Of a stretch of DNA of 64,000 nt, positions 26,264 to 57,556 are shown one piece after another (position 1 is the stretch's first letter; the number at the start of each line of letters is the position of its first letter). The translations under genes and the position numbers were made by a program. The notes under the pieces are model-generated. The model searched no databases and was not told the DNA's origin. It worked only from the letters and a program-made list of their open reading frames with translations. The stretch lies in the sequence record MH051917; one strand, given 5' to 3'. The DNA comes from Enterobacteria phage vB_EcoM_IME341.

Positions 26264-26271
26264 TATTTATA
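26264..26271 (-). promoter_or_regulatory. late promoter TATAAATA for gp9
   Basis: TATTTATA on plus strand 27 nt upstream of gp9 start. Confidence 0.55.
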
Positions 26272-26280
26272 CCCCCGAAA

Positions 26281-26299
26281 GGGCCTTGCGGCCCTTTTT
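26281..26299. other. intergenic GC hairpin between gp8 and gp9
   Basis: GGGCC-TTGC-GGCCC followed by TTTTT on plus strand; orientation ambiguous. Confidence 0.45.
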
Positions 26300-35565: not shown

Positions 35566-35573
35566 TATAAATA
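35566..35573 (+). promoter_or_regulatory. late promoter TATAAATA for gene 4 operon
   Basis: TATAAATA 27 nt upstream of gp4 ATG. Confidence 0.6.
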
Positions 35574-35580
35574 ATATTAA

Positions 35581-35588
35581 TATTTATA
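35581..35588 (-). promoter_or_regulatory. late promoter TATAAATA for gp53
   Basis: TATTTATA on plus strand 28 nt upstream of gp53 ATG; divergent partner of 35566. Confidence 0.6.
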
Positions 35589-38310: not shown

Positions 38311-39194
<884 letters not shown>

Positions 39195-41319: not shown

Positions 41320-41387
41320 ACTTTGATTAGGTAGAGCAGTCAACTTCTCCATGAATAAATATCTATATAAAATTCATGGAGAAAATT

Positions 41388-42047
41388 ATGCTTTGCCAAT
41401 ATTGTTCTAAAGAATGTAAAAACTTAAATTCACTAAAGCAACATGAAAAACGGTGCAAATCTAACCCAAATGGATTAGATATGAGCGGCCCTAATAACCC
41501 TCGTTTCGGTCTTAAAGGTGTCAATCAATTTACAAAAGCCAAAGAACTAGGTAAAGAAATAAAGGTTTCTGATAAAACCAGAGAAAAACTTAGAAAAGCC
41601 AATACAGGATATGTATGGTCTAATGAACGCAAAGAAGCACATTCTAAAAGAATGCGGCAAGCTGTTCTTGATAATCCTGATTCATATTCTGCTTCTAATG
41701 TTTCTGGTCGAGTAAAAACATATGAGTTTGACGGATTTAAATTTAAAGGGACTTGGGAATTAAAAGTTGCTAAGTTTTTAAAAGAACACAATATCAAATA
41801 TACTAATGAAATAAAGCCAATTCCTTACGAATGGGAAGGTTCAGAACATCTCTATTTTCCTGATTTTTATTTACCCACTTATGATTTTTATATAGAAGTC
41901 AAAGGATATAAAAGAGATAGAGACCTTTGTAAATGGAAAGCTTTAGAAAATTTGATAGTTTTAGAAAAAGATGAGATTTCCGATTTGTCTTGTCTTTTAA
42001 ATAAATTACGTCCCGCTGGTGTAATGGATAGCATACGATCCTTCTAA
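41388..42047 (+). CDS. free-standing homing-endonuclease-like protein: CxxC...HxxxxC zinc finger, NUMOD-like linker, PD-(D/E)xK domain related to gp4
   Basis: ATG 41388 after GGAGA; C-terminal YFPDFYLPTYDFYIEVKG parallels gp4 YFMDF...FEVK; lies in tRNA cluster like T4 segB. Confidence 0.55.
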   Translation: MLCQYCSKECKNLNSLKQHEKRCKSNPNGLDMSGPNNPRFGLKGVNQFTKAKELGKEIKVSDKTREKLRKANTGYVWSNERKEAHSKRMRQAVLDNPDSYSASNVSGRVKTYEFDGFKFKGTWELKVAKFLKEHNIKYTNEIKPIPYEWEGSEHLYFPDFYLPTYDFYIEVKGYKRDRDLCKWKALENLIVLEKDEISDLSCLLNKLRPAGVMDSIRSF

Positions 42048-42314: not shown

Positions 42315-42342
42315 AGCCCCTTCCGAAAGGTTGGGGCTTTTT
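42315..42342 (+). terminator. intrinsic terminator (AGCCCCTTCC-GAAA-GGTTGGGGCT + T5)
   Basis: GNRA-loop hairpin and U-run; near-identical copy at 42963. Confidence 0.7.
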
Positions 42343-43078: not shown

Positions 43079-43342
43079 ATGGATAATTATGGTGAATTGT
43101 TTAATTTCTTTATGAAATGCGTTCCTGAAGAATTTGGTGCTACTGTTAACGATATTAAGGTTATAGGTGACGACCATCCTATATTTGAAACGTATGCAGT
43201 AATGGGTAATGATGATGGCCAGTGGTATACCGTAAAGGTTGTGGTTAATATGTTTGCCGCCGAAGGTTATGTTAAATTGTCTACCAAAGTTTATCATGAT
43301 AACGATTTTGATGCGGAAGAGTATTTCAATAATATGAAATAA
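43079..43342 (+). CDS. hypothetical protein
   Basis: ATG 43079 after AAGGAGAG. Confidence 0.5.
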   Translation: MDNYGELFNFFMKCVPEEFGATVNDIKVIGDDHPIFETYAVMGNDDGQWYTVKVVVNMFAAEGYVKLSTKVYHDNDFDAEEYFNNMK

Positions 43343-43344
43343 TT

Positions 43345-43381
43345 GTTTACATGGGCTCATGATTAAGATATTATGAGCCCA
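43345..43381 (+). promoter_or_regulatory. early promoter cassette with 9-bp inverted repeat across the -10
   Basis: GTTTAC 43345-50; TATTAT 43369-74; TGGGCTCAT 43352-60 vs ATGAGCCCA 43373-81. Confidence 0.65.
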
Positions 43382-43399
43382 TAATTTGAGGAGAACATA

Positions 43400-43798
43400 A
43401 TGAATATCGAAGATAAAGAAATGCAAGAGTTGTACAATTCATTAACGCCTGAACAACAAAAAGCTGCCAAAGAATTAGAGAAAGCTCTTACTTTCAACTT
43501 GGCAAAAACTGATTGGGCTGCCATGTATGAAGAAAAAACTAGATTAGAACTTGAAGCGGTCGAGAGAAATGAATGGATTGTCGAAACCAAGATTTCTGAT
43601 GGTGGTTGCTCTGTTGAGGTGTCAGCTGTAGTTAAAGGTACCCATGGCGAAAAATCATGGGGCTGGCATAATGAGACAAACAAATATATTGTTCTCTCAA
43701 CGTCAAAAACTTATGGCCAAAGGGCTCCTGTATCCAAAGCTATTATTAAGCAAGCTCAATGGGAAGCCAATGAAATCTGCCTCGCAAAAATGAAATAA
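43400..43798 (+). CDS. hypothetical protein
   Basis: 132-aa ORF after GAGGAG. Confidence 0.5.
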   Translation: MNIEDKEMQELYNSLTPEQQKAAKELEKALTFNLAKTDWAAMYEEKTRLELEAVERNEWIVETKISDGGCSVEVSAVVKGTHGEKSWGWHNETNKYIVLSTSKTYGQRAPVSKAIIKQAQWEANEICLAKMK

Positions 43799-43801
43799 AA
43801 T

Positions 43802-43838
43802 GTTTACATCCCTCAGAGGACAGGGTATAATGTCCTCA
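43802..43838 (+). promoter_or_regulatory. early promoter cassette with 7-bp inverted repeat across the -10
   Basis: GTTTAC 43802-07; TATAAT 43826-31; GAGGACA vs TGTCCTC. Confidence 0.65.
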
Positions 43839-43873
43839 TGGATTATAAATCTTAACCAACTGAAGGAAATACT

Positions 43874-44467
43874 ATGAACACTTTAAAGAAAATCGTTGAA
43901 TTCATCCGTTCTAAACTGGGTACTGCAATGGCTCAGAACCTGTCAATCGAAGACCAGTATACTAAAGCTGCTTCTACCCTGATTGATAAAATCACTGAAC
44001 TCCAGACTGCTCATGTTAAGTCTGTGAATGAAGAAAAACGTATTCGGGCGTTGGCTAATGAAAAAGACCAGCTTGCTGCTTCTAAAGAACGTGAAATTCG
44101 TAAACTGATTGCCGAAGGCGCTGATGTCCAGGTACATGCTAAACTCGGCCTCCTTTATCGTCGTACGGCTACTCAGCTTCGTAAGAAAGCCGATGATTAT
44201 ATCGAAATGCGTAATGAAATTAAACTGAAGGTCAAGGAACTTGATGACTCTCGTCAGGAACTGGCTGTTAAGCTCGAGTACATCCGTGAAACTCGTAATA
44301 TGGCTGCCCTTGGTATTGCTACTGCCGATGATGTTGTTGAAATCGCTGCACTGACTAAGATTGATATTGAAGATACCCTGCTGCGTGTAGAAACGTTTAA
44401 AGGCCCACAGGTTGGAATGGATACGACTTCTGCTGATATCGACGACTACATTAATTCACTTAAGTAA
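43874..44467 (+). CDS. coiled-coil protein, PspA/IM30-like by composition
   Basis: 197 aa, heptad-rich; similarity judged by eye only. Confidence 0.45.
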
Positions 44468-44474
44468 TGTTACC

Positions 44475-44497
44475 GGGAGACTTCGGTCTCCCTATTT
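44475..44497 (+). terminator. hairpin, weak terminator
   Basis: GGGAGAC-TTCG-GTCTCCC then TATTT; inverted copy of the hairpin at 5852. Confidence 0.5.
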
Positions 44498-44515
44498 GGA
44501 GGAGAGGAGAATATT

Positions 44516-45058
44516 ATGAGTTTATATGATGACCTGATATCAAATATTGATTGGTTTAAACATAGCGGTCTTTCCCATGAAACTAATGCAGTTCTTTATA
44601 GAATTCGCCAAGACCTAGGTTATTCCAATGATTTCTTAAGTCGAACAAGTAGCCATGGACACACTACCAAATTGCCCTTTATCTTCGCTTTAGCTGAAGA
44701 CCTTTCTTTTGCAGAAGCTTTAGAAATTATTGACGTAAATCTGGGTATTCAACGAGTGGAATTCGCTGGATTATGCTATTCAGTATACGCTTTAAATGAA
44801 CCAAGTGATTGTAAACAGCTTGTTGATGCTGACGATGATTACCATTTAGTATGCTATTTGATGTTAGAAAATGGTGACCACTTTGGTATGGTCGACCGCC
44901 GCCCGAGTTATTCGGATATTAAAAATTACGATAAAGATGAGCTTATTATTTTGGCTAATGAGTATACATCAGAGATTCGAAAACAACAACGGAAGCTTAA
45001 TCGTTTTATTGCTGAATGTCGCGAATACGCTAAAGAGGTTCAAAATGGAACGGCCTAG
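44516..45058 (+). CDS. hypothetical protein, C-terminal ...NRFIAECRE
   Basis: 180-aa ORF after GGAGGAGAGGAG. Confidence 0.5.
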   Translation: MSLYDDLISNIDWFKHSGLSHETNAVLYRIRQDLGYSNDFLSRTSSHGHTTKLPFIFALAEDLSFAEALEIIDVNLGIQRVEFAGLCYSVYALNEPSDCKQLVDADDDYHLVCYLMLENGDHFGMVDRRPSYSDIKNYDKDELIILANEYTSEIRKQQRKLNRFIAECREYAKEVQNGTA

Positions 45059-45398
45059 TCTTTCATCACATGTTTATCAATTGGCTGAATATGATATTGC
45101 TATTTCCTTATTTATGGGAATTGTCACCGGTATGCTAGGAGGTTTGGTTGGTCTGGTAATGACCACGGTTATGGCGGCAATCGAAGGAGTCACGCCTATT
45201 GAGATGGGTTTTTATATGATAATCGCTCCGGCTGTCGTGGCTTATTTTATCCCTGTTGTGTATGATATTTGCCATACAAACGCTTTGAATGCTCCCATCC
45301 GTAAGAGATATGCTTTAGAGATGGCTAATTATAATGAGCATGTAAAACAAACTAAACGTAATGACCTTGAAATCTTTATTAAGGAATGTAAATCATGA
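45045..45398 (+). CDS. small membrane protein, C-terminal ...EIFIKECKS
   Basis: two TM segments; coupled to next gene. Confidence 0.5.
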   Translation: MERPSLSSHVYQLAEYDIAISLFMGIVTGMLGGLVGLVMTTVMAAIEGVTPIEMGFYMIIAPAVVAYFIPVVYDICHTNALNAPIRKRYALEMANYNEHVKQTKRNDLEIFIKECKS

Positions 45399-45685
45399 AT
45401 AAAATTGAAATCGAAATCCCAGAACACAACGATGAGAAATCTGCAGAAAAGGCTATCTATGCTCTTCTGAATAAAGTGAATACCATCGAACATGAATGTG
45501 AAGCTATTGCCGATAAGTATGGTATCCAATTCGGTACCGGTGATTATGGTTCAGGCCGTACATATTATCCTGTCGGTTATGAATGCTCCCAGTGGTTTAA
45601 AGATGAAATTGAAAACAACGGCGGTGAAGTTGAAAACGGCGTCGTTACAGTTGGTGCTTGGGTCTCCTCTTCAGCAATGTGCTAA
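45395..45685 (+). CDS. tandem-family member A (C-terminus GAWVSSSAMC)
   Basis: TAAGGA RBS; shared C-terminal motif. Confidence 0.6.
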   Translation: MNKIEIEIPEHNDEKSAEKAIYALLNKVNTIEHECEAIADKYGIQFGTGDYGSGRTYYPVGYECSQWFKDEIENNGGEVENGVVTVGAWVSSSAMC

Positions 45686-45694
45686 GGAAACGCT

Positions 45695-45976
45695 ATGATG
45701 AATGATAACCATAACAACCCGGAGCTTCTGGCCGCAGTAAAAGAAATCCATGAAGCTATTCGTCGTGCTGAGGAAATTGCAGACAAATATGAGACTCATT
45801 TTAATATATACCCTGCTCGCGGTATGGGCGGTGACTATTATTCTCCTGGCGCCCTGAAAGCTGACCTGGCCCACTGGGAAGAAGATGGTCATCCTGAATG
45901 GGCTATTGTTAATACTCATGACTATACAACTGACCTGGAAAATGGTGGTTGGGTGTCCTCTTCTTCTGAATGTTAA
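45695..45976 (+). CDS. tandem-family member B (C-terminus GGWVSSSSEC)
   Basis: TAAGGA RBS overlapping upstream stop; shared motif. Confidence 0.6.
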   Translation: MMNDNHNNPELLAAVKEIHEAIRRAEEIADKYETHFNIYPARGMGGDYYSPGALKADLAHWEEDGHPEWAIVNTHDYTTDLENGGWVSSSSEC

Positions 45977-45985
45977 GGAATTATT

Positions 45986-46183
45986 ATGTCTCGTGAATTA
46001 GATTGTGCAATCCGTACTGCAGCCGCAGCTATTGAAAACGTTATCCAGATTTGTAAAGAAGAACGCGAAGAAGCCGATATCTATATCGATGGTGTTCGTG
46101 ACCTAGAACGACATATCACGCTTTATAACGGTTGTATTACTATTAGTGGTACCTCTTGGGTGTCCTCCTCTTACGAATGCTAA
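45986..46183 (+). CDS. tandem-family member C (C-terminus TSWVSSSYEC)
   Basis: as above. Confidence 0.6.
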   Translation: MSRELDCAIRTAAAAIENVIQICKEEREEADIYIDGVRDLERHITLYNGCITISGTSWVSSSYEC

Positions 46184-46192
46184 GGAAATAAA

Positions 46193-46402
46193 ATGACTAT
46201 TGATGAAATTGAAAAACAAATCCGTGAATTAGTACGTAAAGGCCAGTCTGTGGCTGACGAAACAGGTCAGCACTTCCACGCTGGTGGCGAAGAATATATT
46301 CCAGCTTCTAGTCCGGAATATGATGATTACGAATGGGTCCGTGATGACTACGGTATTCCTGAAGGTGAAGGTTTCTGGTTTAGCTCCTCTATGTCTTGCT
46401 AA
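46193..46402 (+). CDS. tandem-family member D (C-terminus GFWFSSSMSC)
   Basis: as above. Confidence 0.6.
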   Translation: MTIDEIEKQIRELVRKGQSVADETGQHFHAGGEEYIPASSPEYDDYEWVRDDYGIPEGEGFWFSSSMSC

Positions 46403-46412
46403 GGTGATAAAA

Positions 46413-46637
46413 ATGACTGATATTAATGAATTAGAAAAAGCGGCACTTGAACTGGCTGCACTGTATAAGAAAGTAAAAGATATGGCTTCTGCTCAGGATT
46501 TTGGTGTTGAGCTCGATGATTATGACGGTGAAGTTCGTCTCGAAGATTGGCTGAATAGCTCTTGTTATGGTGAAGAAGCTGGTCGCACCTTCGTTGCTCG
46601 GTCCGATGGTAAAATCTGGTACCCAAGCTCATGCTAA
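46413..46637 (+). CDS. tandem-family member E (C-terminus KIWYPSSC)
   Basis: as above; degenerate motif. Confidence 0.55.
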   Translation: MTDINELEKAALELAALYKKVKDMASAQDFGVELDDYDGEVRLEDWLNSSCYGEEAGRTFVARSDGKIWYPSSC

Positions 46638-46858
46638 AATTGAAAAAACGATACATTCGTAAAATAAACGGTCTTCGCGATTATGCCAAAGGTTGGCCAC
46701 TAAGTATTATTATGGCTGATAGACACCCACGTTATAATACCGAGATGACTTATTACAAAAAGTATGATTCGTATTGTCGGTCTAAAGCAGGCCGTTTAGA
46801 TGGTTCTTACGAAGACTATTTTGGTAAAAAACCTACTCGTGTTTCGTTAGGAAAATAA
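46631..46858 (+). CDS. hypothetical basic protein
   Basis: 75-aa ORF, weak RBS. Confidence 0.35.
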   Translation: MLKLKKRYIRKINGLRDYAKGWPLSIIMADRHPRYNTEMTYYKKYDSYCRSKAGRLDGSYEDYFGKKPTRVSLGK

Positions 46859-46888
46859 TTTAACCACATGGATGTGGTAGGAGGACTT

Positions 46889-47218
46889 ATGCATAAAGAT
46901 TCAGTATTCAAATATCTTTTGAAAACAGATAAAGAATTCTATATGAATGGGCAAGCCTTCTTGTTCGTTCGTGGTAAACGTGAGATGTTTTACAAATGCG
47001 ACCTCTCAATGCACCATCATATGTATCACACCCATGGCGAGCCTATACTGGGGTTCTCTGGTGACGAAACTAGACGTATAGCTATGTACTACGACCATTT
47101 TAAGCTCAATGATTGTGGTGACAACGCTCTGGTCTGGAATCCATCTTGGCGTCGTTGGGATACGGTAGACAACGATAAATTATTTTTAGAATATTGCAGA
47201 AGTGATGTACAACTCTAA
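46889..47218 (+). CDS. hypothetical His-rich protein
   Basis: ATG 46889 after AGGAGGA. Confidence 0.45.
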   Translation: MHKDSVFKYLLKTDKEFYMNGQAFLFVRGKREMFYKCDLSMHHHMYHTHGEPILGFSGDETRRIAMYYDHFKLNDCGDNALVWNPSWRRWDTVDNDKLFLEYCRSDVQL

Positions 47219-47234
47219 AAATACGTGTTACTAT
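47207..47234 (+). promoter_or_regulatory. early promoter variant (TGTACA -35, TACTAT -10)
   Basis: leader ACACAAACATGAGGAGAAC shared with the denV leader. Confidence 0.45.
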
Positions 47235-47261
47235 TACCCTACACAAACATGAGGAGAACAT

Positions 47262-47501
47262 ATGTGGTATTACGCTCCGATGTCCGATAAGTCTAATGAA
47301 CCGGTACGCATTACTCGTGCCAAGTTTAAAAAGATTTATGGCTTTGCTTATAAGAAGTCTGATTACGGTGTTCGTTTTGAAGATGCTCACTGTATCAATG
47401 ACCCTTATGCAGAAGAAATTTCTAATGAGATAATTCCTATCGTTGAGAGTAATTCCAATGATATGTGGGAATTGCATAACACTTACGTTGCCGAAATTTA
47501 A
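47262..47501 (+). CDS. hypothetical protein
   Basis: 79-aa ORF after GAGGAG. Confidence 0.5.
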   Translation: MWYYAPMSDKSNEPVRITRAKFKKIYGFAYKKSDYGVRFEDAHCINDPYAEEISNEIIPIVESNSNDMWELHNTYVAEI

Positions 47502-47520
47502 GTTTACTGAGGAAAATATT

Positions 47521-48480
47521 ATGATGCTAGTTATTGGTTCTCGCGCACTGCACCACGCTGGTCTGATTGAAAATAAGTATATCGAAAATTCTGATTGGGA
47601 TTTCATTGCCGACCAAGGCTCATGGAACCACTTTAAAGCTCGGATGTTCGGCGCCCATGTACACGTTGACAATCCTGATGTTCAGGCTTTCAAATGTATG
47701 CATAATGGTAAAGAAACCTATTTCGAAGCTTATATCGTCCGTGCTCTGACTAACGTACGTGAAATCACTGGTGAGCTCCAAGACGAAGATTTCACCTCAA
47801 GTTATCGTCTCCTGAAATATGCTGAAAATCGTATTAAAAAGGACCGTCTTACAGGTTTCTATTGGGCTACGCCTGATATCTGTCTGGCTATCAAAACCTC
47901 TCATCGTTTCCTGAAGAATAATCCTTTCTTCTTGAAAACTATGTCCCACATCAAATACCTTCGTAATAAAGGTATCACCCTGAATGAAGAACTCCAGGAA
48001 ATTATGCTGCAGCGTCAAAAAGAAACGTTGAGCTATTCCCACCCTAAATTGGATGTAAACAAATCATCGTTCTTTAACGATACCATTTATACGCTAGACC
48101 ACGACTCTATCCATGAAGCCGTGGCATTGGCAGGGCGCCCGGCATATACCTTTTATATGAAGGAAGGTTCTGAAGTCATGACCTCTCGTGAGAAGTTCGA
48201 GGCTTTGCCTGAAGCTATTAAACTGGCTGGTGTATATGAAGAAACTTGTGTCCTGGCACTAGAACGTTCACAGGTTCCTAATGACTTCAATATTTCACCA
48301 TCATTAAGTTTCTATATGGCTCTTGAGAAAGTGTGTACCTCAATCACTTCAGGTTGGTTCCGTGAGTACGCCTGGGAAAACTACCAAGCTGTGGTTAATA
48401 TGTACAAGACTTTAGGTGAAAACGACTACATCAAACGATTCCAAGATAACCATCATTTAATTCGTCCTTTCGAAAAATAA
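47521..48480 (+). CDS. hypothetical protein with possible G-S...D-x-D nucleotidyltransferase-like N-terminus
   Basis: ATG 47521 after GAGGAAAA; IGSRALHHAG...SDWDF; weak. Confidence 0.5.
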   Translation: MMLVIGSRALHHAGLIENKYIENSDWDFIADQGSWNHFKARMFGAHVHVDNPDVQAFKCMHNGKETYFEAYIVRALTNVREITGELQDEDFTSSYRLLKYAENRIKKDRLTGFYWATPDICLAIKTSHRFLKNNPFFLKTMSHIKYLRNKGITLNEELQEIMLQRQKETLSYSHPKLDVNKSSFFNDTIYTLDHDSIHEAVALAGRPAYTFYMKEGSEVMTSREKFEALPEAIKLAGVYEETCVLALERSQVPNDFNISPSLSFYMALEKVCTSITSGWFREYAWENYQAVVNMYKTLGENDYIKRFQDNHHLIRPFEK

Positions 48481-48492
48481 TTGCATAAAATT

Positions 48493-48532
48493 GTTTACAA
48501 GGTCTATAGGCATGATACTATAGACCTATCAA
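48493..48532 (+). promoter_or_regulatory. early promoter cassette, 45-bp identical copy of 39207
   Basis: identical GTTTACAAGGTCTATAGGCATGATACTATAGACCTATCAAAACAA. Confidence 0.7.
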
Positions 48533-48558
48533 AACAACAGAGTGAAATGGAGAATAAA

Positions 48559-48771
48559 ATGAAACTTTCTAACCAAGCAATCAACATGTTAAACGAAGTT
48601 CGTGCAGCTGGTGCTAAATGCCTGATGGTTAACACTCGTGACGGTGACCTTCGTCAAGCATTCGGTGAATTGAAATCTGCTGACCTGGTTAAATGTTCAG
48701 TTGGTATCGGTAACGCACTTCGTGTATCCTTATCCCCTAAAGGTAAAATGTACTTTTTCAACAAAAAGTAA
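48559..48771 (+). CDS. hypothetical protein
   Basis: ATG 48559 after GGAGA; 70 aa. Confidence 0.5.
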   Translation: MKLSNQAINMLNEVRAAGAKCLMVNTRDGDLRQAFGELKSADLVKCSVGIGNALRVSLSPKGKMYFFNKK

Positions 48772-48785
48772 GTGAGGAAAATATT

Positions 48786-49472
48786 ATGAACGGTCCAAAA
48801 ACTTTTAATTCTAAAGCTCGTGCAGTAGGTGGTTTCGCTGGTAAAATTTCTAATGATAAAATCAAAAACGAACCTATGTTCTTCAACAGCTCGTTGGCCT
48901 TCGCTTTTGATAATGGTGGCCCTATTACTCGCAGCTTCATCATGAACCTACCGGATGATTGGAACACTGACCGGGTTGTATTTGATTCTCGTGTTCATAT
49001 GCTGATGCCTGGCTGGTACCCTGCTATCCCAGGTTATCACCATGATGATGTACCACGTCCGGATATTCCGGTTGGCCAACACTTTATTACCGCAGGGCAG
49101 CCTGATTATGATAATCCTCGTTACCATTCTGAACATATTCTTGGTCTTGTTAACGCTGATGTGTGTCCTACCCATTTTGCAACCGGAACTGCGCAATTTA
49201 GCCAGATTCCTGAAGGCGAACTTATCTATCGCCAGTGGCATAAAGAAGTTCTGGAAAAAATTGAGTCCAATGAATTAACCAAGTGGGATGCTCCTGACCG
49301 CACGTTGCTCCAATTTGATTGGCAGACATGGCATACAGGTTCTCGTGCAGTAAGTAACGGTTGGCGCTGGTTTGGTCGTGTCTCTCGTAATACCGACCGT
49401 GTTAAAAAGATTACTAATGAAATCCGTGTTAATGCTCAAGTTTATCTGGAATTCCCTATGGAGGGCTGGTAA
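48786..49472 (+). CDS. hypothetical protein with H-H-D-D...H metal-binding-like motif
   Basis: 228-aa ORF after GAGGAAAA; motif-level only. Confidence 0.5.
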   Translation: MNGPKTFNSKARAVGGFAGKISNDKIKNEPMFFNSSLAFAFDNGGPITRSFIMNLPDDWNTDRVVFDSRVHMLMPGWYPAIPGYHHDDVPRPDIPVGQHFITAGQPDYDNPRYHSEHILGLVNADVCPTHFATGTAQFSQIPEGELIYRQWHKEVLEKIESNELTKWDAPDRTLLQFDWQTWHTGSRAVSNGWRWFGRVSRNTDRVKKITNEIRVNAQVYLEFPMEGW

Positions 49473-50059
49473 TGGCCCTTTATGAACCCGGGTGTATGGG
49501 CATTGATGTAAACTTCATCCGTCGGTCGGAAAATGCCGGAATTATTATCCCAAGAGGTGAGAATATGATTATTAAAAAGTCCTGGCGAAATCTCGATGAC
49601 GGTGATGAAGGAATTTCAGCCAGTACAATAGATTGGTCAGGTTGTACTGCTGAAATGAAACAGCTTTTAATTGAGGAATATAAAATGGGTTATATCGTAA
49701 ACGGTTGGCAACCTGAACCACATAAAGAGCAGACTCCGGACCCGTTGATTTGTTATAGTAAAAAATACGGCTTTCGCGCATGGAGTGACGAATATGACAA
49801 ATTAGTGAGTTCTAGGTTCTATGTTTGGATGGGAATATTATTTTTTCCACTCCTTTGGTTTTTCCTGACAACAGATAATGACCTGCCTATTTGTGTATTC
49901 GCTTCAGCGATGTCTGCGGCTATCTCGGGTCTTATTGCGTCATTTTTATGGACCTCGGTTATCGAAGTACCTTTTCGTATTTCTAAAGTTAAAAAGGTAT
50001 ATGATGATATCTCCAAGAAAAATACATTAAACTCTTTTATTGAGGAATGCCGTAAATGA
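49472..50059 (+). CDS. membrane protein, C-terminal ...NSFIEECRK
   Basis: 195 aa, C-terminal TM segments. Confidence 0.5.
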   Translation: MALYEPGCMGIDVNFIRRSENAGIIIPRGENMIIKKSWRNLDDGDEGISASTIDWSGCTAEMKQLLIEEYKMGYIVNGWQPEPHKEQTPDPLICYSKKYGFRAWSDEYDKLVSSRFYVWMGILFFPLLWFFLTTDNDLPICVFASAMSAAISGLIASFLWTSVIEVPFRISKVKKVYDDISKKNTLNSFIEECRK

Positions 50060-50292
50060 GTATTGCAATTTATATTAAATCTGAGTCATGTGATTCTTAT
50101 CTGTATTCCTATGATACCGGAACGTCAGAAGAAAAAATCAAAGAAGATTTAGAAAGCGACTTGGATATGTTCCGACCTATTTCTGATTATATGGTCCAAA
50201 TATCTGATAGTGAAAGTCCGTCAACAGAAACGTGTGTTGAAATTATTATACGAGATATCTTTAAACAATCATGGGACCGAGACAATGAGTAA
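50056..50292 (+). CDS. small acidic protein
   Basis: 78-aa ORF, coupled. Confidence 0.4.
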   Translation: MSIAIYIKSESCDSYLYSYDTGTSEEKIKEDLESDLDMFRPISDYMVQISDSESPSTETCVEIIIRDIFKQSWDRDNE

Positions 50293-50734
50293 GAAAGCTA
50301 AGGAATTATCGGCAGGTATTTTGTTCATGACTGTTGATAAAGAACTGGTCATGGGGCGTGTAACAGGCTCTCGTAATCCAGAGAATATGCGTCATAAATG
50401 GGACATTCCTAAAGGTCATGTCGAACCAGGCGAAGAGCCTATTCAAGCGGCAATGCGTGAAACCGAAGAAGAGATTGGATTCACAGCATACGATCCTGCG
50501 TTCCTGAAAGACCTAGGTGAGTTCAAATATTCAAGCAATAAGAATCTACATCTGTTCTTATATACGGTGCCTGTGGAACACGAGCAGTTCAAGAATTGCA
50601 AATGTACGGCTTACCATACGTTCCCTGACGGTCGCACGATTCCTGAATTCGATGCGTTTGCCTTGATTAAACGTCCACAATGGGAATATGTCATGGGTAA
50701 GTCGATGTTTAAGGTTTTAGATTCGCTCTTTTGA
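50285..50734 (+). CDS. nudE: Nudix hydrolase
   Basis: Nudix box GHVEPGEEPIQAAMRETEEEIG; start at MSKKAKEL; directly upstream of e. Confidence 0.8.
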   Translation: MSKKAKELSAGILFMTVDKELVMGRVTGSRNPENMRHKWDIPKGHVEPGEEPIQAAMRETEEEIGFTAYDPAFLKDLGEFKYSSNKNLHLFLYTVPVEHEQFKNCKCTAYHTFPDGRTIPEFDAFALIKRPQWEYVMGKSMFKVLDSLF

Positions 50735-50761
50735 TATAAATACCTCCTATACTCAGGAGGT
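50735..50761 (+). promoter_or_regulatory. late promoter TATAAATA embedded in an SD-sequestering hairpin upstream of e
   Basis: TATAAATA 50735-42; ACCTCCT 50742-48 pairs AGGAGGT 50755-61 (the e RBS). Confidence 0.7.
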
Positions 50762-50764
50762 ATT

Positions 50765-51259
50765 ATGGATATTTTTGATATGTTACGTCAAGACGAAGGT
50801 CTTGATTTAAATCTTTATAAAGACACCGAAGGTTATTGGACTATTGGGATTGGCCAGTTGATTACCAAAAACCCTTCAAAAGATGTTGCTCGTGCCGAAC
50901 TTGATAAGCTTATGGGCCGGGTTTGCAACGGTCGTATTACTATGGCTGAAGCTGAACAACTCTTTAACCGATCGGTTGAAAATGCTCGTAGAGCTATTCT
51001 GCGTAATCCTAAATTGAAACCTGTTTATGATGTACTGGACGAAGTTCGTCGTTGTGCTTTAATTAACATGGTCTTCCAGATGGGTGAAGCAGGTGTAGCT
51101 GGGTTCACTAACTCTTTACGTATGCTCCAACAGAAACGTTGGGACGATGCGGCAGTTAACCTGGCTCAATCCCGTTGGTATAAACAAACTCCTAATCGTG
51201 CTAAGCGCGTGATTTCAACATTTAAAACAGGTACTTGGAAAGCATATGAAAACTTATAA
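50765..51259 (+). CDS. e: endolysin (T4 lysozyme)
   Basis: 164 aa, near-collinear with recalled T4 lysozyme ([21 protein letters not shown]...[31 protein letters not shown]). Confidence 0.95.
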
Positions 51260-51548
51260 TGAATTTATCACTGAAGCCCGCGTAACCGCAGGTAAATTAG
51301 AAGCCGCTGTAAATAAAAAGGCCCATTCATTTCATGATTTGCCAGATAAAGACCGTAAGAAACTTGTAAGCCTTTATATTGACAAAGAGCGTATTCTCGC
51401 TCTCCCGGGCGCTAATGAAGGTAAACAGGCCAAGCCTTTGAATTCTGTCGAAAAGAAAATTGATAACTTTGCTTCTAAGTTTGGTATGTCTATGGATGAC
51501 CTTCAGCAAGCGGCTACCGAAGCAGCTAAAGCAATTAAAGGTAAATAA
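51246..51548 (+). CDS. internal-protein-like protein with leader [12 protein letters not shown]
   Basis: capsid-targeting leader; position matches ipIII/ipII in T4. Confidence 0.65.
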
Positions 51549-51550
51549 CA

Positions 51551-51580
51551 GTTTACTTTTACAATAGCTGTGATATAGTG
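51551..51580 (+). promoter_or_regulatory. early promoter (GTTTAC, 17 bp, TATAGT)
   Basis: upstream of denV. Confidence 0.5.
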
Positions 51581-51608
51581 TTCTCACACAAACATGGAGA
51601 ACACTAAA

Positions 51609-52025
51609 ATGACTCGTATTAACCTTACCTTAGTATCTGAATTGGCCGACCAACACTTAATGGCTGAATATCGCGAATTACCACGTGTTTTCGGTGCAGT
51701 TCGTAAGCATGTTGCTAATGGTAAACGTGTTCGTGATTTTAAAATTAGCTCTACTTTTATCCTTGGTACCGGCCATGTTACTTTCTTTTATGATAAGCTT
51801 GAATTTTTACGTAAACGTCAAATCGAGCTTATAGCCGAATGTTTAAAACGTGGTTTTAATATCAAGGACACTACGGTCCAAGACATTAGTGATATTCCTC
51901 AGGAATTCCGTGGTGACTATACTCCACACGAAGCTTCTATTGCTATATCTCAGGCCCGTTTGGACGAAAAAATTGCACAGCGTCCTACCTGGTACAAACA
52001 TTATGGCAAGGCTATTTACGCTTAA
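51609..52025 (+). CDS. denV: endonuclease V (pyrimidine-dimer DNA glycosylase)
   Basis: 138 aa, near-identical to recalled T4 DenV ([47 protein letters not shown]...). Confidence 0.95.
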
Positions 52026-52067
52026 TTAAATCCGTGATAGAATACTTCTATCAACTTAAGGAATAAT

Positions 52068-52367
52068 ATGAAAACTTATCAAGAATTTATTACAGAAGCC
52101 AAAGCTCCTAAAGCATTTCAAATTGGAGTTCAAGGCAATTTAGACCAAGAATATGTTGATGCTATTGTAGCAAGCCTCGGTAAACAGGGTGTACAAGTGG
52201 ATTTTGTTGATTTTACCAAAGGTAATACTTTTAATATTGTTACATCTAAAGGTTCTTTAGCTAAAGTTAAAAAGGCCTTTGGCGTAGCACAAGCATATGA
52301 AATCGACCACTCCGAATTGGAAAATAAAGGTCGCCAGAACACAATTAAAGGTTCTGGTTCTTTCTAA
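52068..52367 (+). CDS. internal-protein-like protein with leader MKTYQEFITEAK
   Basis: capsid-targeting leader. Confidence 0.65.
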   Translation: MKTYQEFITEAKAPKAFQIGVQGNLDQEYVDAIVASLGKQGVQVDFVDFTKGNTFNIVTSKGSLAKVKKAFGVAQAYEIDHSELENKGRQNTIKGSGSF

Positions 52368-52527
52368 TAAAGGCAAGCCGGCCCTCTCCTCATGAACGTC
52401 GCGTCCTCTGAGTGATGGACCTTTCCCTACCTGTAATAAGGTCGAGCCCAAGTGCGGTAAAGGGTTTACATACGGATACATGGACGAATTATGTGCCAAG
52501 GAACGGCCCCACCACTAAGAGACTACT

Positions 52528-53055
52528 ATGAAATTTTTAACTCCCATTTATCTAACCTTAATGCACGCCTTCGCTGAACGCGCCATTGAACGTTTAGACT
52601 CAGACCAATATACCTGGTATGAACCTGCTTCAAGAATGCAAGAGTTTGGTACTCTTCGACTTGATGGCGGACGCCAAACAGGTAAAACAAGTGCCCTTGC
52701 TCAGTTCGCAGCTGATTGGGTTTCCAAGGGTAATGATGTGATTGTTATGTCAAGTTCTTCGCATCGCTCGCGGGAAATCTGTAATATAATAAAGCGGGTT
52801 TCTAAGGCACAACCGCATCTTAATGTTGACCAACCCGGTTTTATCGTCTACGATACTGTTCGTTCATTTTTAGATGAAGATCATTTCCATAAGTACCGTG
52901 GGCTATCTGTTACCCGATTATTGATTATTATTGAAGAGCCGATGCGCCTTCCGGCAATGGATAAGTTCTATGAAGCTTATCAGGTAATGATTAATAAATT
53001 TATGTGCCAAGGCGACAAACCTTTACCTCTGTTCTTTGTGATAGGAATGCAATGA
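52528..53055 (+). CDS. small P-loop protein
   Basis: Walker A-like GGRQTGKTS; 175 aa. Confidence 0.5.
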   Translation: MKFLTPIYLTLMHAFAERAIERLDSDQYTWYEPASRMQEFGTLRLDGGRQTGKTSALAQFAADWVSKGNDVIVMSSSSHRSREICNIIKRVSKAQPHLNVDQPGFIVYDTVRSFLDEDHFHKYRGLSVTRLLIIIEEPMRLPAMDKFYEAYQVMINKFMCQGDKPLPLFFVIGMQ

Positions 53056-53348
53056 TGACTGATGAAGAACTTTTTGAGTTCTGTTATTTCTCACGTAAGG
53101 TTCGAAGAGAGGACCTTACCGCGAATTTTGAATATGCTTATTTTTACCCACTAGAATACGTGTTCATGACAGGGCCCTTTAAGGGCTCTCGTTTTAGATG
53201 TCATGCCCCAAGCATCCGATTAATGAAACAGGTTCCTTACTTTACCCTCGAGTTCATCTCAGGGCCTTGTAAGGGTATTATTACTCGCAGTCTCTTAACT
53301 TATGACCAAGAGATTCATATGATTTCTGACTGGAAGAAATATGTCTAA
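53052..53348 (+). CDS. hypothetical protein
   Basis: ATGA-coupled ORF. Confidence 0.45.
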   Translation: MMTDEELFEFCYFSRKVRREDLTANFEYAYFYPLEYVFMTGPFKGSRFRCHAPSIRLMKQVPYFTLEFISGPCKGIITRSLLTYDQEIHMISDWKKYV

Positions 53349-53559
53349 ATTGACAATTGAAGGCTCTGATGAAGCTCTGAAGATGTTTGTTGACTGGTTC
53401 CACGGACAGGGCGAACAAGGCTTTTTGGAATGTTGGGATGGCGGACGCTGGAATGGTAAAGAAACCGTTTATCCTAGCACATATATCTCTGTTCGTGGTG
53501 GATATGACGGGATTCATTTAGTTGAATACGATATTGCATCTGATGAGGAAGTGAAATGA
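53341..53559 (+). CDS. hypothetical protein
   Basis: 72-aa ORF. Confidence 0.45.
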   Translation: MSKLTIEGSDEALKMFVDWFHGQGEQGFLECWDGGRWNGKETVYPSTYISVRGGYDGIHLVEYDIASDEEVK

Positions 53560-53834
53560 TTGAAGATATTAAGGGTTACAAACCACATACCGACGACAAA
53601 ATCAGTAAAGTGAACGCGATTAAAGATGCTGAAGTTCGATTAGGGTTAATCTTTAAAGCCTTGGAAGAAGAATATGTTGAAGCCTTTACATGCTCGGGTG
53701 TTGACAAAATGAGTGATGAAGAATTCAACCTCACCCATGAACGCCTAGCCCAGATTCGTACGGCAATCGAACGCTTGAAAGAAGCAAGCATGTGGGCGTG
53801 TCGTTCCGTTTTCCAGCCCGAGGAAAAATACTGA
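53556..53834 (+). CDS. hypothetical protein
   Basis: 92-aa ORF after GAGGAAG. Confidence 0.45.
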   Translation: MIEDIKGYKPHTDDKISKVNAIKDAEVRLGLIFKALEEEYVEAFTCSGVDKMSDEEFNLTHERLAQIRTAIERLKEASMWACRSVFQPEEKY

Positions 53835-54043
53835 TGAAAATTGAAAGTTTACAAGATTTCCAGCGTATCATTGGTGAAGCCTGTACCGGCTACCACAAAT
53901 ACTTGCTTGACGACCAAATGGCTTGTCTCGAAGAAGGTGAAGTACAGTATGCAGCCCAACGCCTTGAACAAGTGAAAGAGTTTTATCCTGTATTGGTAGA
54001 AATTTGTTCAGCTGCTGGAAAACTTACCCCATTCCAAGAATAA
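53834..54043 (+). CDS. hypothetical protein
   Basis: ATG 53834 after GAGGAAAAA. Confidence 0.45.
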   Translation: MKIESLQDFQRIIGEACTGYHKYLLDDQMACLEEGEVQYAAQRLEQVKEFYPVLVEICSAAGKLTPFQE

Positions 54044-54047
54044 AGCA

Positions 54048-54096
54048 GTTTACATCTCCTGTAGACATGATACTATAAACCTATCAACTACAGGAG
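54048..54096 (+). promoter_or_regulatory. early promoter cassette; spacer CTCCTGTAG pairs with SD-containing CTACAGGAG
   Basis: GTTTAC 54048-53; TACTAT 54071-76; arms 54056-64 and 54088-96. Confidence 0.7.
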
Positions 54097-54104
54097 ATTA
54101 CAAA

Positions 54105-54563
54105 ATGTCAGAAATTAATTCAGAAGTATTCATCCGCCGCAACAAATTACGTCGTCAGTTCGAAACCGAATTCCGTGAACTGAATGCGTCCATCAAAAAA
54201 GCCGCCATTAAGAGCGGTGTCCCAGCCTTCTTTATTAAGTACTCTAATCACTTGTTGGACCGTGCTATCCAACGTGAAATCGACGAAAAATACGTTTTTG
54301 CTTTATTCAAGCAACTCCATAACCATGTTAAAGAAATCCACGAATTCTTAATCCAGGAACCTCTGCCTGATGTAGAATCCGAAATTGTCCCTGGTAAAGT
54401 GTATCGTCCATTGCGTCTCGAAATTACCGATAAAACCTTATGGCTAGGTATGACAGTAGACCGTAAACATCCTGATAAAGGATATTCCCTTAAATGTCGT
54501 ATGGCATTTGTTAACTCTAAACGTTTAGAAGGTAAAACCAGCACTAAAGTAATCTATCTTTAA
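54105..54563 (+). CDS. hypothetical protein
   Basis: 152-aa ORF. Confidence 0.5.
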   Translation: MSEINSEVFIRRNKLRRQFETEFRELNASIKKAAIKSGVPAFFIKYSNHLLDRAIQREIDEKYVFALFKQLHNHVKEIHEFLIQEPLPDVESEIVPGKVYRPLRLEITDKTLWLGMTVDRKHPDKGYSLKCRMAFVNSKRLEGKTSTKVIYL

Positions 54564-54575
54564 TAATGAGGTCTC

Positions 54576-55115
54576 ATGAAAAAAGTATTAGCCACTTTAC
54601 TATTGACAGTTAGTATGTCTGCCCATAGCGTAGAGCCTACTTTCAGTAATGAACAACTCGATAATTTACATTACGCGTATGCTTTCGGTGAACAATACCA
54701 AAAGTCGGGAAAGTTCAAAGAAAACCCTAATCAAAAAGGATTAGGATATATCATGGCCGGATTACTATGGCAGGAATCATCCGCCGGAATTAATCAAGGT
54801 TTAAATAAAGATAAGCACCATGCTTATGGCATGTTCCAAAATTACTTGCCTACGTTAAGAAGTCGTGTTCAACAGGTAGGTTGGAAGATGTCAGACAAAG
54901 AAATAATTCGTATGGTCCAAAAACGACAGAACAGTGCCTCTTGGGCCTACATTGAGCTGTCTTATTGGATTGATGTTCACAAAGGTGACCTGAGAAAAGC
55001 GATTGCTTCTTATAATGCGGGCTGGAACGTCAAAGCAGGCAGTAAGTATGCTTCTGAAGTTCTAGAAAAGGCCAATTACCTAAAATCTAAAAAGATGTTT
55101 GAGGCGGTATATTAA
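54576..55115 (+). CDS. secreted lytic-transglycosylase-like protein (SLT motifs)
   Basis: signal peptide MKKVLATLLLTVSMSAHS; catalytic-type WQESSAG...GMFQ and AYNAG-like ASYNAGWN. Confidence 0.55.
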   Translation: MKKVLATLLLTVSMSAHSVEPTFSNEQLDNLHYAYAFGEQYQKSGKFKENPNQKGLGYIMAGLLWQESSAGINQGLNKDKHHAYGMFQNYLPTLRSRVQQVGWKMSDKEIIRMVQKRQNSASWAYIELSYWIDVHKGDLRKAIASYNAGWNVKAGSKYASEVLEKANYLKSKKMFEAVY

Positions 55116-55472
55116 ATGATTAAGCAGATGACTATAGCGCTTATGTTGATCGCTCCGGGAGTATTAGCGTCACAAGTTGATGATAGCAATAATTCAATTG
55201 TTGAGTATGCTACCCGCACAGCAAAAGATTATTGTCATCCAAGTAATACTGAATGCGTTATCGAATTCAGTTCAAAAATCACAGCGGCTTTTAAAGATGG
55301 ACAGAACGACGTAGAGCATCGCAGAATGAAAGAGAAAACTCTTTCTAAAAGGTACGAGCAACGTCTAAACGTTACTGAATGTGTTCCATCTGATAAAAAG
55401 TACAAAGAAATGTGTGCGTCTATGGTAGACAGACTCGTTGACTCATACAACCGAGGATTAAACTCTAAATGA
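55116..55472 (+). CDS. secreted Cys-containing small protein
   Basis: signal peptide MIKQMTIALMLIAPGVLAS. Confidence 0.5.
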   Translation: MIKQMTIALMLIAPGVLASQVDDSNNSIVEYATRTAKDYCHPSNTECVIEFSSKITAAFKDGQNDVEHRRMKEKTLSKRYEQRLNVTECVPSDKKYKEMCASMVDRLVDSYNRGLNSK

Positions 55473-55936
55473 TTATTGATTATATTAAGGGCGATATAGT
55501 CGCCCTGTTTCTTCAAGGTAATAATGTTGCACACGGGTGCAATTGTTTCCATACAATGGGTTCAGGTGTAGCCGGACAATTGGCTAAGGCTTATCCGCCT
55601 ATTCTCGCTATCGATAAAACCACTTATTTAGGTGGGGTAGAAAAACTTGGCACGTTTACCCAAGCCACAGGTAATAATGGCCAAATTTGCTATAATCTTT
55701 ATACGCAATACGAACCTGGCCCTAATCTTGATTATGGTGCTTTAGTAAACTGTATGATAGAATTAAACCGTACCGCAAAGGGTCTTTTGTTTAAACCCAG
55801 AATTTATATTCCTCGCATCGGTTGTGGTATTGCTGGTGGTGATTGGGACAAGGTTTATCAATTGATTAATTTGTTTACTCCTGATATTAATTTAGTGGTG
55901 GTAGATTATGAAAGCCCATTACCCACATCCGTTTGA
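55469..55936 (+). CDS. macro-domain (ADP-ribose binding/hydrolase-like) protein
   Basis: GDIVAL...NNVAHGCNCFHTMGSGVAGQL resembles the macro-domain signature. Confidence 0.6.
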   Translation: MIIDYIKGDIVALFLQGNNVAHGCNCFHTMGSGVAGQLAKAYPPILAIDKTTYLGGVEKLGTFTQATGNNGQICYNLYTQYEPGPNLDYGALVNCMIELNRTAKGLLFKPRIYIPRIGCGIAGGDWDKVYQLINLFTPDINLVVVDYESPLPTSV

Positions 55937-56120
55937 CCCTAAAAACAAAGCGGAAATTATTCGACGCTGGACCGAAACCCGAGTAACCAAATGTCCTATA
56001 AAAAGTCAACACAACACCGATAAATGGTATATCGGTGAATACGTTGAATATACTTTTATAGATAAAAATAAACGTAAACATCATGTAGAAGAATATTGCT
56101 TAAAGGTGCAATGGCTATGA
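55908..56120 (+). CDS. hypothetical protein
   Basis: 70-aa ORF. Confidence 0.4.
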   Translation: MKAHYPHPFDPKNKAEIIRRWTETRVTKCPIKSQHNTDKWYIGEYVEYTFIDKNKRKHHVEEYCLKVQWL

Positions 56121-56302
56121 GTCTGAGTAAAGAACAGAAAGATAAATTGTTTGAGCTTATCCATGAGCTTTTGGATGAGCATACAGAAGCAAACGCCTTT
56201 TATGATGAATACGGTCCAATAGATGCCGAACATCAGGAAGAATTTGCCAATCGATTTGATGAGAAAGAAAATGAATTAATAGCTTATGTAAATAGTCTTT
56301 AA
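56111..56302 (+). CDS. small acidic protein
   Basis: ATG 56111 after AAGGTG. Confidence 0.4.
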   Translation: MAMSLSKEQKDKLFELIHELLDEHTEANAFYDEYGPIDAEHQEEFANRFDEKENELIAYVNSL

Positions 56303-56311
56303 GAAGGTAAT

Positions 56312-56884
56312 ATGGCCCAACTTTATTTTCACTACGCAGCAATGAATTCCGGGAAGACCGCTTCATTGCTAACAGCCGCTCATAACTACAAAGAACGTGG
56401 TATGGGCGTACTTCTTTTAAAGCCTGCGATAGACAATAGAGAATCAAGCCATAGCATTTCGTCTCGTATAGGGATTAGCCAAGAGGCTAATGCAGTGACT
56501 CCAGATATGGACCTATACGAGTTCTATCGTTGGGCTGAATCTCAAAAAGATATCCACTGCGTGTTTGTGGATGAAGCACAGTTCTTAGAACCAATACAGA
56601 TAAAACAACTGGCAAAGATAGTAGACAATTATAATGTTCCAGTTATGTGCTATGGGCTAAGAACTGATTTTCAGGGTAAACTGTTTCCTGGTTCTGCTGA
56701 ATTACTCGCTACAGCAGATAAACTCGTTGAGTACAAAGGTGTGTGCCATTGTGGACGTAAAGCTACTATGACGGCTCGTATCCAAGATGGTATCGCAATT
56801 AAGGACGGTGACCAAGTTTCTATAGGTGGCAACGATTCTTACGTGTCATTGTGCAGGAAGCACTGGATAGAAATAACGAGTTGA
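56312..56884 (+). CDS. tk: thymidine kinase
   Basis: N-terminal P-loop YFHYAAMNSGKT; 190 aa. Confidence 0.9.
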   Translation: MAQLYFHYAAMNSGKTASLLTAAHNYKERGMGVLLLKPAIDNRESSHSISSRIGISQEANAVTPDMDLYEFYRWAESQKDIHCVFVDEAQFLEPIQIKQLAKIVDNYNVPVMCYGLRTDFQGKLFPGSAELLATADKLVEYKGVCHCGRKATMTARIQDGIAIKDGDQVSIGGNDSYVSLCRKHWIEITS

Positions 56885-56891
56885 GGGTACT

Positions 56892-57170
56892 ATGGACCTA
56901 AATTCAAAGATTTTAATTCTAGCGTTCGCTGTGGCTATTTCTTATATTGTTCTTTCGCCTATCATGGATGATGTGGCTTACAAAAGAGAGATAGAGGTTG
57001 TAGCAGCGACGTATAATGCTAATAATAAAGAATGCCCTAATAAAAATGGGATGGATTTAATTAAAGCGCATTATATGCTTTCCATTACCTCGCCTATACA
57101 GAGGAATTGGGTTGAATATAATTTTAACGACGTGTTCTATTCTTATTGTCGTAAGCTTAAAAAGCTATAA
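56892..57170 (+). CDS. N-terminally membrane-anchored small protein (rI-like by position after tk)
   Basis: N-terminal TM, Cys-containing periplasmic part. Confidence 0.45.
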   Translation: MDLNSKILILAFAVAISYIVLSPIMDDVAYKREIEVVAATYNANNKECPNKNGMDLIKAHYMLSITSPIQRNWVEYNFNDVFYSYCRKLKKL

Positions 57171-57262
57171 ATAATAATACTAACCGTAGAGCTTTAGCTT
57201 TTGGTAATCGCTATCGGTTAAGGCCGAAAGGCAAATAGTATAAAACAACAAAGGACATTTGT

Positions 57263-57556
57263 ATGGATATTTTCCGTACAGCGGCTTGTATCCTTATGGC
57301 GGGATGTTTAGGCCCTTCAGTTTCACTAGCAAATGATACCAATGATAAATTGATGGACGCGTTTGCTAGTAGTGCGATGCCTGTTTATGCGCAAATGAGT
57401 AGACCCAGCGTAAAAGCCTCCGAAGATTATTGGGCCTATGTTACGGCTTCCTGGAAGAATTCAAGTTGTCGGACTATAGAAGCGTGCTCAATTGAAGGTC
57501 GTGCCATCGGAGAGCGTTATGCAAAACTAATGAAGGTAGAAGATGAAATTCAATGA
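57263..57556 (+). CDS. putative lipoprotein
   Basis: signal peptide with lipobox-like LMAGC. Confidence 0.45.
   Translation: MDIFRTAACILMAGCLGPSVSLANDTNDKLMDAFASSAMPVYAQMSRPSVKASEDYWAYVTASWKNSSCRTIEACSIEGRAIGERYAKLMKVEDEIQ

Follow-up and report, generated by a model that had tools for sequence, protein, structure and literature searches.

We analysed a 64-kb stretch of phage DNA (hereafter the window), in which the lysozyme gene e lies on the + strand (50765..51259; Pfam Phage_lysozyme PF00959, E 1e-12) and encodes a T4-type lysozyme of 164 aa. Directly upstream on the same strand is nudE, which encodes a Nudix hydrolase (50285..50734; Pfam NUDIX, E 1e-14), and downstream is an ipII-like internal virion protein gene (51246..51548, +; PHROG internal virion protein, E 5e-54), whose first 14 nt overlap the end of e and which is itself followed by denV. 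The + strand ORFs from 43079 to 52025 are all packed or overlapping. The e product is 75% identical to T4 e across all 164 residues (E 4e-94), with E11, D20 and T26 present in the alignment, and on this comparison the gene at 50765–51259 is the T4 e orthologue. NudE is 60% identical to T4 NudE in an alignment that reaches the last residue, and nudE is annotated at this place in Escherichia phage IME08.

Two start codons in this region deserve comment. The IME08 RefSeq record (NC_014260, 60743) begins the e CDS one codon earlier, at an ATT (window 50762–50764; 498 nt), whereas the alignment with T4 (MNIFEML vs MDIFDML) and the spacing from the Shine-Dalgarno (SD) sequence favour ATG 50765. For nudE, whose ORF is open from GTG 50210, the annotated start (window 50165) is probably too far upstream; the probable start, ATG 50285, gives a protein of 149 aa, against 151 in T4.

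The window comes from a Dhakavirus, that is, a JS98/IME08-like T-even phage of the Tevenvirinae. Its e locus (50200–51300) is 100% identical to that of IME08, and k-mer mapping of the whole window gave approximately 97–98% identity to this phage, with indels and with segment 38451–42151 replaced. Since this segment shares no 25-mers with IME08, the window represents a mosaic relative and not IME08 itself, and coordinates carried over from the IME08 annotation are valid around 43–52.5 kb only. Small ORFs starting MKTY(N/Q)EF(I/L)(T/A)E were seen at 38985, 39273 and 39500, with similar ones at 42384, 51246 and 52068. Those at 51246 and 52068 match PHROG internal virion/head protein families and the others were judged by their N-termini only; as a set, they suggest a variable array of internal head-protein genes.

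The nudE–e intergenic region together with the start codon reads ...ctcttttgaTATAAATACCTCCTATACTCAGGAGGTATTATGgat... on the + strand. The nudE stop codon TGA (50732–50734) directly adjoins the octamer TATAAATA (50735–50742), an exact match to the core of a T4-type (gp55) late promoter and the sole late promoter for e. The octamer is followed by the anti-SD stretch ACCTCCT (50742–50748), the SD stretch AGGAGGT (50755–50761) and the e start codon ATG (50765–50767). Because TGA abuts the promoter, the 30-nt intergenic space consists of promoter, 5′ arm, loop, SD and spacer, and nothing else.

In RNA that reads through from nudE, this leader is predicted to fold into a hairpin with a perfect 10-bp stem, in which 50739–50748 pairs with 50755–50764. 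The 5′ arm, AAUACCUCCU, contains the anti-SD CCUCCU and is present on read-through RNA only; the 3′ arm, AGGAGGUAUU, corresponds to the Shine-Dalgarno sequence AGGAGG plus the spacer. Between them lies the 6-nt loop AUACUC (50749–50754), placed both by the folds and by alignment with the T4 leader, and the promoter overlaps the stem by 4 nt. The stem appeared in MFE and centroid folds in 36-, 101- and 141-nt contexts. A previous sequence-only reading of this DNA had given positions for TATAAATA, ACCTCCT and AGGAGGT that all proved exact, and had proposed that the latter two pair; they do so in the predicted folds, although the predicted stem is longer than the seven bases named.

Taken alone, the hairpin has a predicted dG of −14.1 kcal/mol (z −4.26), a stability not matched in any of 200 dinucleotide shuffles. 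It ranks in the top 0.29% of the 127,930 36-nt windows on both strands of the 64-kb window, where 47 strand-specific loci, the e hairpin among them, are equally stable. The pattern CCTCC-N3-20-GGAGG occurs twice in the 64 kb, compared with 0.29 occurrences expected. The 101- and 141-nt contexts around the e leader showed no unusual structure overall (z −1.6 and −1.7, respectively), the local hairpin alone standing out. An Rfam search returned no family match, its sole hit being Phe_leader at chance level (E 0.84). The stem is also unlike an intrinsic terminator, having no U tract and being followed by AUGGAUAUUUUUGAU with the start codon, and a terminator scan revealed no terminator-like site between nudE and e. 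A sigma-70 scan of 46000–53000 yielded 20 sites, against 18.9 ± 4.1 in shuffles; being at chance level, it does not locate the source of early read-through RNA. One MotA-box-like site was seen, at 45311.

At T4-type late promoters, TATAAATA occupies positions −13 to −6, of which −13 is poorly conserved (Nolan et al. 2006, PMC1524935). Applied to the octamer upstream of e, this spacing predicts the late +1 at 50748 (plausible range 50747–50750), 6 nt past the last A of TATAAATA and at the last base of the 5′ arm, so that the predicted late RNA cannot form the stem. RNA started at 50748 or 50749 showed no significant structure when folded (z +0.16 and +0.19, respectively).

The window holds 15 copies of TATAAATA against 7.5 ± 2.7 expected, an approximately 2-fold excess; 3 of 100 shuffles matched this count. 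For eight of these copies, a same-strand ORF start with SD and ATG follows at 21–29 nt (last A to ATG), and the starts so preceded include those of genes 4, 53 and 9 and of late-strand structural genes. With 22 nt to the ATG, the e site, one of the eight, has a spacing typical of the window's other late promoters. CCTCC is absent after these other promoters, which argues that the anti-SD is not a generic late-promoter feature. The late transcription proteins gp55, gp33 and gp45 are expected in a Dhakavirus; judging by T4 gene order, their genes presumably lie outside the 64-kb window.

Downstream of the e promoter, from 50743 to 57165, the + strand carries no further copy of [A/T/G]ATAAATA. 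The ipII-like gene (51246–51548) and the Ip gene (52068–52367) may therefore need the e promoter, and the ipII-like gene is probably co-transcribed from it. The sole other perfect copy of TATAAATA on the early-region + strand is at 57166–57173. It lies 89 nt 5′ of an ORF at 57263 (97 aa) that maps to an IME08 ORF annotated 'lysis inhibition' (rI-like), and thus both early-region + strand late promoters, at 50735 and 57166, precede lysis-related genes.

To compare the e leader with its T4 counterpart, we computed in the same way for both the energy required to open the region from SD to AUG. On read-through RNA, the predicted cost was 13.8–14.8 kcal/mol here and 15.0–15.4 kcal/mol in T4. On late RNA, it was 3.6–4.4 kcal/mol here (start 50747–50750), compared with 4.0 kcal/mol (P1) and 1.2 kcal/mol (P2) in T4; opening the late RNA is still predicted to cost about 4 kcal/mol. 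The matching energies suggest that the e element is quantitatively equivalent to the experimentally characterised T4 element. Ranked by RBS opening energy, the e start (13.85 kcal/mol) is 7th among 72 candidate gene starts, for which the median is 5.4 kcal/mol. Since six other candidate starts have an equal or higher opening energy, the e hairpin is strong but not unique in the genome.

In T4, early, longer transcripts run into e and form an inhibitory structure, which has been demonstrated and cuts lysozyme synthesis about 100-fold (Uzan & Miller 2010, PMC3014915). The late T4 e transcripts arise from two promoters and are made without the 5′ portion of this structure, and close T4-type relatives have similar leaders, with a late promoter in the region coding for the 5′ strand (PMC3014915). 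The T4 leader, TATAAATACCTTCT...AGGAGGTATTATG, is nearly identical to the one described here (T4 TATAAATACCTTCTATAAATACTTAGGAGGTATTATG vs window TATAAATACCTCCTATAC----TCAGGAGGTATTATG): the upstream promoter, 5′ arm, SD, spacer and start codon align base for base. Both leaders have TATAAATAC followed at once by the anti-SD arm, and the 3′ arm AGGAGGTATT and the spacer are identical. The predicted stem energies are likewise close (−14.1 kcal/mol here, −13.3 kcal/mol in T4). The differences are few. T4 has a second TATAAATA (P2) in a loop of 8–10 nt, whereas the window has the upstream promoter only and the 6-nt loop ATACTC; one stem pair is C-G here and U-G in T4; the nudE–e distance is 30 nt here and 37 nt in T4; and the gene after e is an overlapping ipII here but a separate ipIII in T4.

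From the bare sequence it had also been proposed that the T4 gene e arrangement is conserved at this locus, with the RBS hidden on nudE read-through RNA and late RNA lacking the 5′ arm. The conservation is borne out by the orthologous gene, the upstream nudE and the near-identical leader. In the folding models, the predicted opening cost of about 14 kcal/mol supports a hidden RBS on read-through RNA, and the predicted +1 at 50748, together with the absence of structure in the modelled late RNA, is consistent with loss of the 5′ arm.

We then compared e loci from IMG/VR and from named GenBank phages, which gave 16 distinct leaders. The named representatives cover six genera (Tequatrovirus, Dhakavirus, Kanagawavirus, Winklervirus, Karamvirus and Jiaodavirus), and the rest are IMG/VR contigs. 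ATAAATAC is invariant in all 16 Tevenvirinae leaders, preceded by T, A or G as the first promoter base, in keeping with the weak conservation of −13 described by Nolan et al., and followed directly by the anti-SD arm. Every leader folds into an SD-sequestering hairpin of 7–13 bp (dG −8.7 to −16.6 kcal/mol), with z between −2.1 and −6.3 for the 13 that were folded against shuffles. RNA started 6 nt past the promoter keeps only 0–4 nt of the 5′ arm across the 16.

The helix occurs in two registers: it is extended outward by AAUAC/GUAUU in T4, IME08 and leaders L007 and L010, and inward by UAUC/GAUA in the other genera, and loop length among the relatives ranges from 4 to 8 nt. In the Kanagawavirus, Winklervirus, Karamvirus and Jiaodavirus leaders, CUCCUAU comes next after ATAAATAC and forms base pairs with the SD; the promoter starts with A or G, not T, and the helix is of the inward-extended form. 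Many leaders of these four genera add a small GUCC/GGAC hairpin around the AUG. The second T4 promoter, P2, is confined to T4-type leaders among those examined and is mutated in KIT03. What is conserved across the six T-even genera is the upstream late promoter with the anti-SD arm, not the second promoter of T4.

A covariance model spanning promoter, hairpin and ATG matched every Tevenvirinae e locus. In the window, it gave one + strand match (50735–50770, E ~1e-10), the only other match being weak (E 0.27) and reflecting the same palindrome on the reverse strand. The model found no match at non-Tevenvirinae lysozyme loci, and the arrangement is absent in the three non-Tevenvirinae phages checked, FKP3 and PD06 (both Justusliebigvirus) and AsFcp_2 (Angelvirus), in agreement with the published list of phages without the structure (PMC3014915). 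In the model-fitted alignment, 86.6% of cells pair, compared with 30–57% when the partners are slid. The covariation test on this alignment revealed no double-sided pair changes and a score equal to that of every shuffle, as expected for a helix whose 3′ arm, being the SD, is not free to drift. Compensatory changes that appeared when leaders were anchored on their MFE folds (U-A to C-G in L007, C-G to A-U in X20) depend on the alignment register and were not counted. What supports the helix is the complementarity conserved within a non-coding spacer, together with the experiments in T4, and not compensatory change.

Lysozyme leaders with related features were also seen beyond the Tevenvirinae. 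Cronobacter phage S13 (NC_028773, ~126310–126370; L022, 1440–1495), a member of the Straboviridae outside the Tevenvirinae, has a lysozyme of 65% aa identity, the leader of which forms an 18-bp SD-sequestering stem (dG −24, z −5.5) with CTAAATA in the 5′ arm. CTAAATA is the late-promoter core reported for Aeh1, and the S13 leader may represent this switch built on another promoter motif. Three IMG/VR contigs of 17–35 kb (L036–L038) encode more distant lysozymes (40–46% aa). About 60 nt 5′ of the lysozyme ATG, they carry an anti-SD CCUC just upstream of a CATAAATA motif, and this CCUC pairs with the SD (e.g. CCTCATAAATAT...ATATTTAATGAGG; z −1.9 to −3.8). Contigs L034–L038 show weak tail-fibre similarity to Aeromonas T4-like phages.

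We consider it very likely, with a probability of about 0.88, that the e leader is the orthologue of the early/late translational switch of T4 gene e. The observations that we bring to this reading are the sequence elements, their predicted thermodynamics, orthology, synteny and conservation. By analogy with T4, early and middle transcripts of the co-directional, packed array would read through nudE into e, and on this read-through RNA the CCUCCU arm (50739–50748) would pair with the SD and spacer (50755–50764). The resulting 10-bp hairpin is proposed to prevent binding of 30S subunits, so that no lysozyme would be made; the read-through RNA and its translational silence, like the transcript 5′ ends, are modelled on T4. 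Once DNA replication starts, gp55-RNA polymerase would initiate from TATAAATA (50735–50742) at about 50748. The late RNA, without the 5′ arm, would have an open RBS, and lysozyme would be translated late; the overlapping ipII would probably be translated from the same late RNA. A switch of this kind prevents endolysin synthesis before progeny assembly and is a classic case of promoter choice deciding mRNA translatability.

Several other explanations of the same sequence were weighed. If e were under transcriptional control only, the hairpin would be incidental, or would act as a nudE 3′ stability element, a weak terminator or an exonuclease barrier. Its location directly 3′ of the nudE stop, the hairpins of similar energy that bring the number of such strand-specific loci to 47, several of them terminators, and the absence of formal covariation would all fit such a role. 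However, the stem lacks a following U run and was not called terminator-like, and in 16/16 leaders the 3′ arm coincides exactly with the e SD, even though the upstream gene differs in some (Shinkou). Moreover, T4 early mRNA does extend into e, where the structure blocks translation (PMC3014915), and we regard control by transcription alone as improbable. Early silencing might instead depend mainly on the RegB endoribonuclease, with the hairpin in a minor role, as RegB cuts GGAG in SD sequences of T4-type phages (PMC3014915), the e SD contains GGAG, and regB is annotated in the collinear region of IME08, the nearest relative, some 6 kb past e. This GGAG, though, is buried in a perfect 10-bp stem on exactly those RNAs that RegB would have to cut; repression of T4 e has been attributed to structure (PMC3014915), and the T4-type phage literature examined yielded no action of RegB at e. 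A leading part for RegB therefore seems to us less probable still.

The palindrome ACCTCCT...AGGAGGT overlaps the promoter and could in principle be a DNA operator for a dimeric protein, placing e under a transcriptional control like the autorepression of I-TevI, whose operator overlaps its late promoter (PMC2988022). Against this, the relatives retain pairing while the stem register and loop length (4–8 nt) vary, a pattern more readily explained by an RNA helix than by a fixed binding site for a protein. The SD itself makes up one half of the palindrome, and no candidate binding protein is known; we judge an operator to be very improbable. As for a chance meeting of a promoter-like octamer with an inverted repeat, TATAAATA is indeed only about 2-fold enriched in an AT-rich window, a count matched by the 3 shuffles in 100 mentioned above. 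Yet six genera share the combination at the orthologous position, the hairpin has a z of −4.26 and the characterised T4 element is identical in layout. Coincidence, the least probable of these explanations, is effectively refuted by the conservation.

The translational switch that we favour for the e leader is an arrangement already known, its mechanism in T4 dating from 1986 and its conservation among T4-type phages having been noted in a 2010 review. The T4 e leader hairpin mechanism was reportedly shown by McPheeters et al. in 1986 (Nucleic Acids Res 14:5813). Our additions are modest: across genera, conservation extends to the upstream promoter only; the genera are not uniform in helix register; and, in the present lineage, internal-protein genes downstream may be served by the e promoter too. 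The analysis also corrects the annotation, with the e start at ATG 50765, the late promoter at 50735 and the regulatory stem at 50739–50764, which is useful for engineering lysis timing in JS98/IME08-like therapeutic phages.

A wider interpretation is offered tentatively, and we are inclined to doubt it as a whole. In Dhakavirus, the remaining e promoter may be the sole late promoter of a small operon (e, ipII and possibly the head gene at 52068), with the hairpin gating lysozyme while the same late RNA supplies head proteins. Across the Tevenvirinae, the switch might have been kept by a change of register and not by point covariation. The S13 leader might hint that the design is older than the Tevenvirinae or has had multiple origins.

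The design of hairpin plus late promoter has been described for I-TevI, I-TevII, I-TevIII, segB and Aeh1 mobE, with e and soc listed too (Edgell et al. 2010, PMC2988022). The T-even homing endonuclease genes follow a like logic, in which the RBS is sequestered on early/middle RNA and late RNA is made without the 5′ arm (PMC2988022), but they are other genes with other sequences, and their leaders are not homologous to that of e. The window itself contains another, independent example of the e-type design, at 41345–41390 (+), before an ORF at 41388–42047. Here, UUCUCCAUGAAU (41345–41356) forms a perfect 12-bp stem with AUUCAUGGAGAA (41372–41383; dG −14.7, z −6.0). The 5′ arm and loop include a late-promoter-like AATAAATA (41354–41361), the 3′ arm includes the SD GGAG (41379–41382), and RNA from ~41367 is unstructured. 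The ORF encodes an endonuclease-like protein of 219 aa (PHROG endonuclease, E 5e-39; Pfam Phage_endo_I below cutoff) and is located between tRNA-Met and tRNA-Arg, overlapping the start of the latter. T6 and PST carry an unrelated segB at this site, and the ORF is complete in only 3 phage records.

Further hairpins and promoters in the window were also noted. The signal of TATAAATA plus hairpin at 26271 (−) was rejected as a switch: it consists of a terminator and, after it, the late promoter of gene 9, and the only stem near the SD is a weak A-U one. The strongest hairpins of the window are at 42315–42340 (+), 43351–43382 (+) and 26275–26295 (−). The first is a terminator-like GCCCC...GGGGCTTTTT after tRNA-Arg, and the last is a GGGCCGCAAGGCCC terminator directly before the gene 9 late promoter. 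That at 43351–43382 has a 13-bp perfect stem just 5′ of an SD, GAGGAG, near 43386, which it leaves uncovered. The late promoters of genes 4 (+) and 53 (−) are divergent and together make up the palindrome TATAAATAatattaaTATTTATA at 35566–35588 (both strands), so that each read-through RNA could fold an A-U hairpin beside its SD; the predicted opening energies for these two genes are 16–19 kcal/mol (−150 context).
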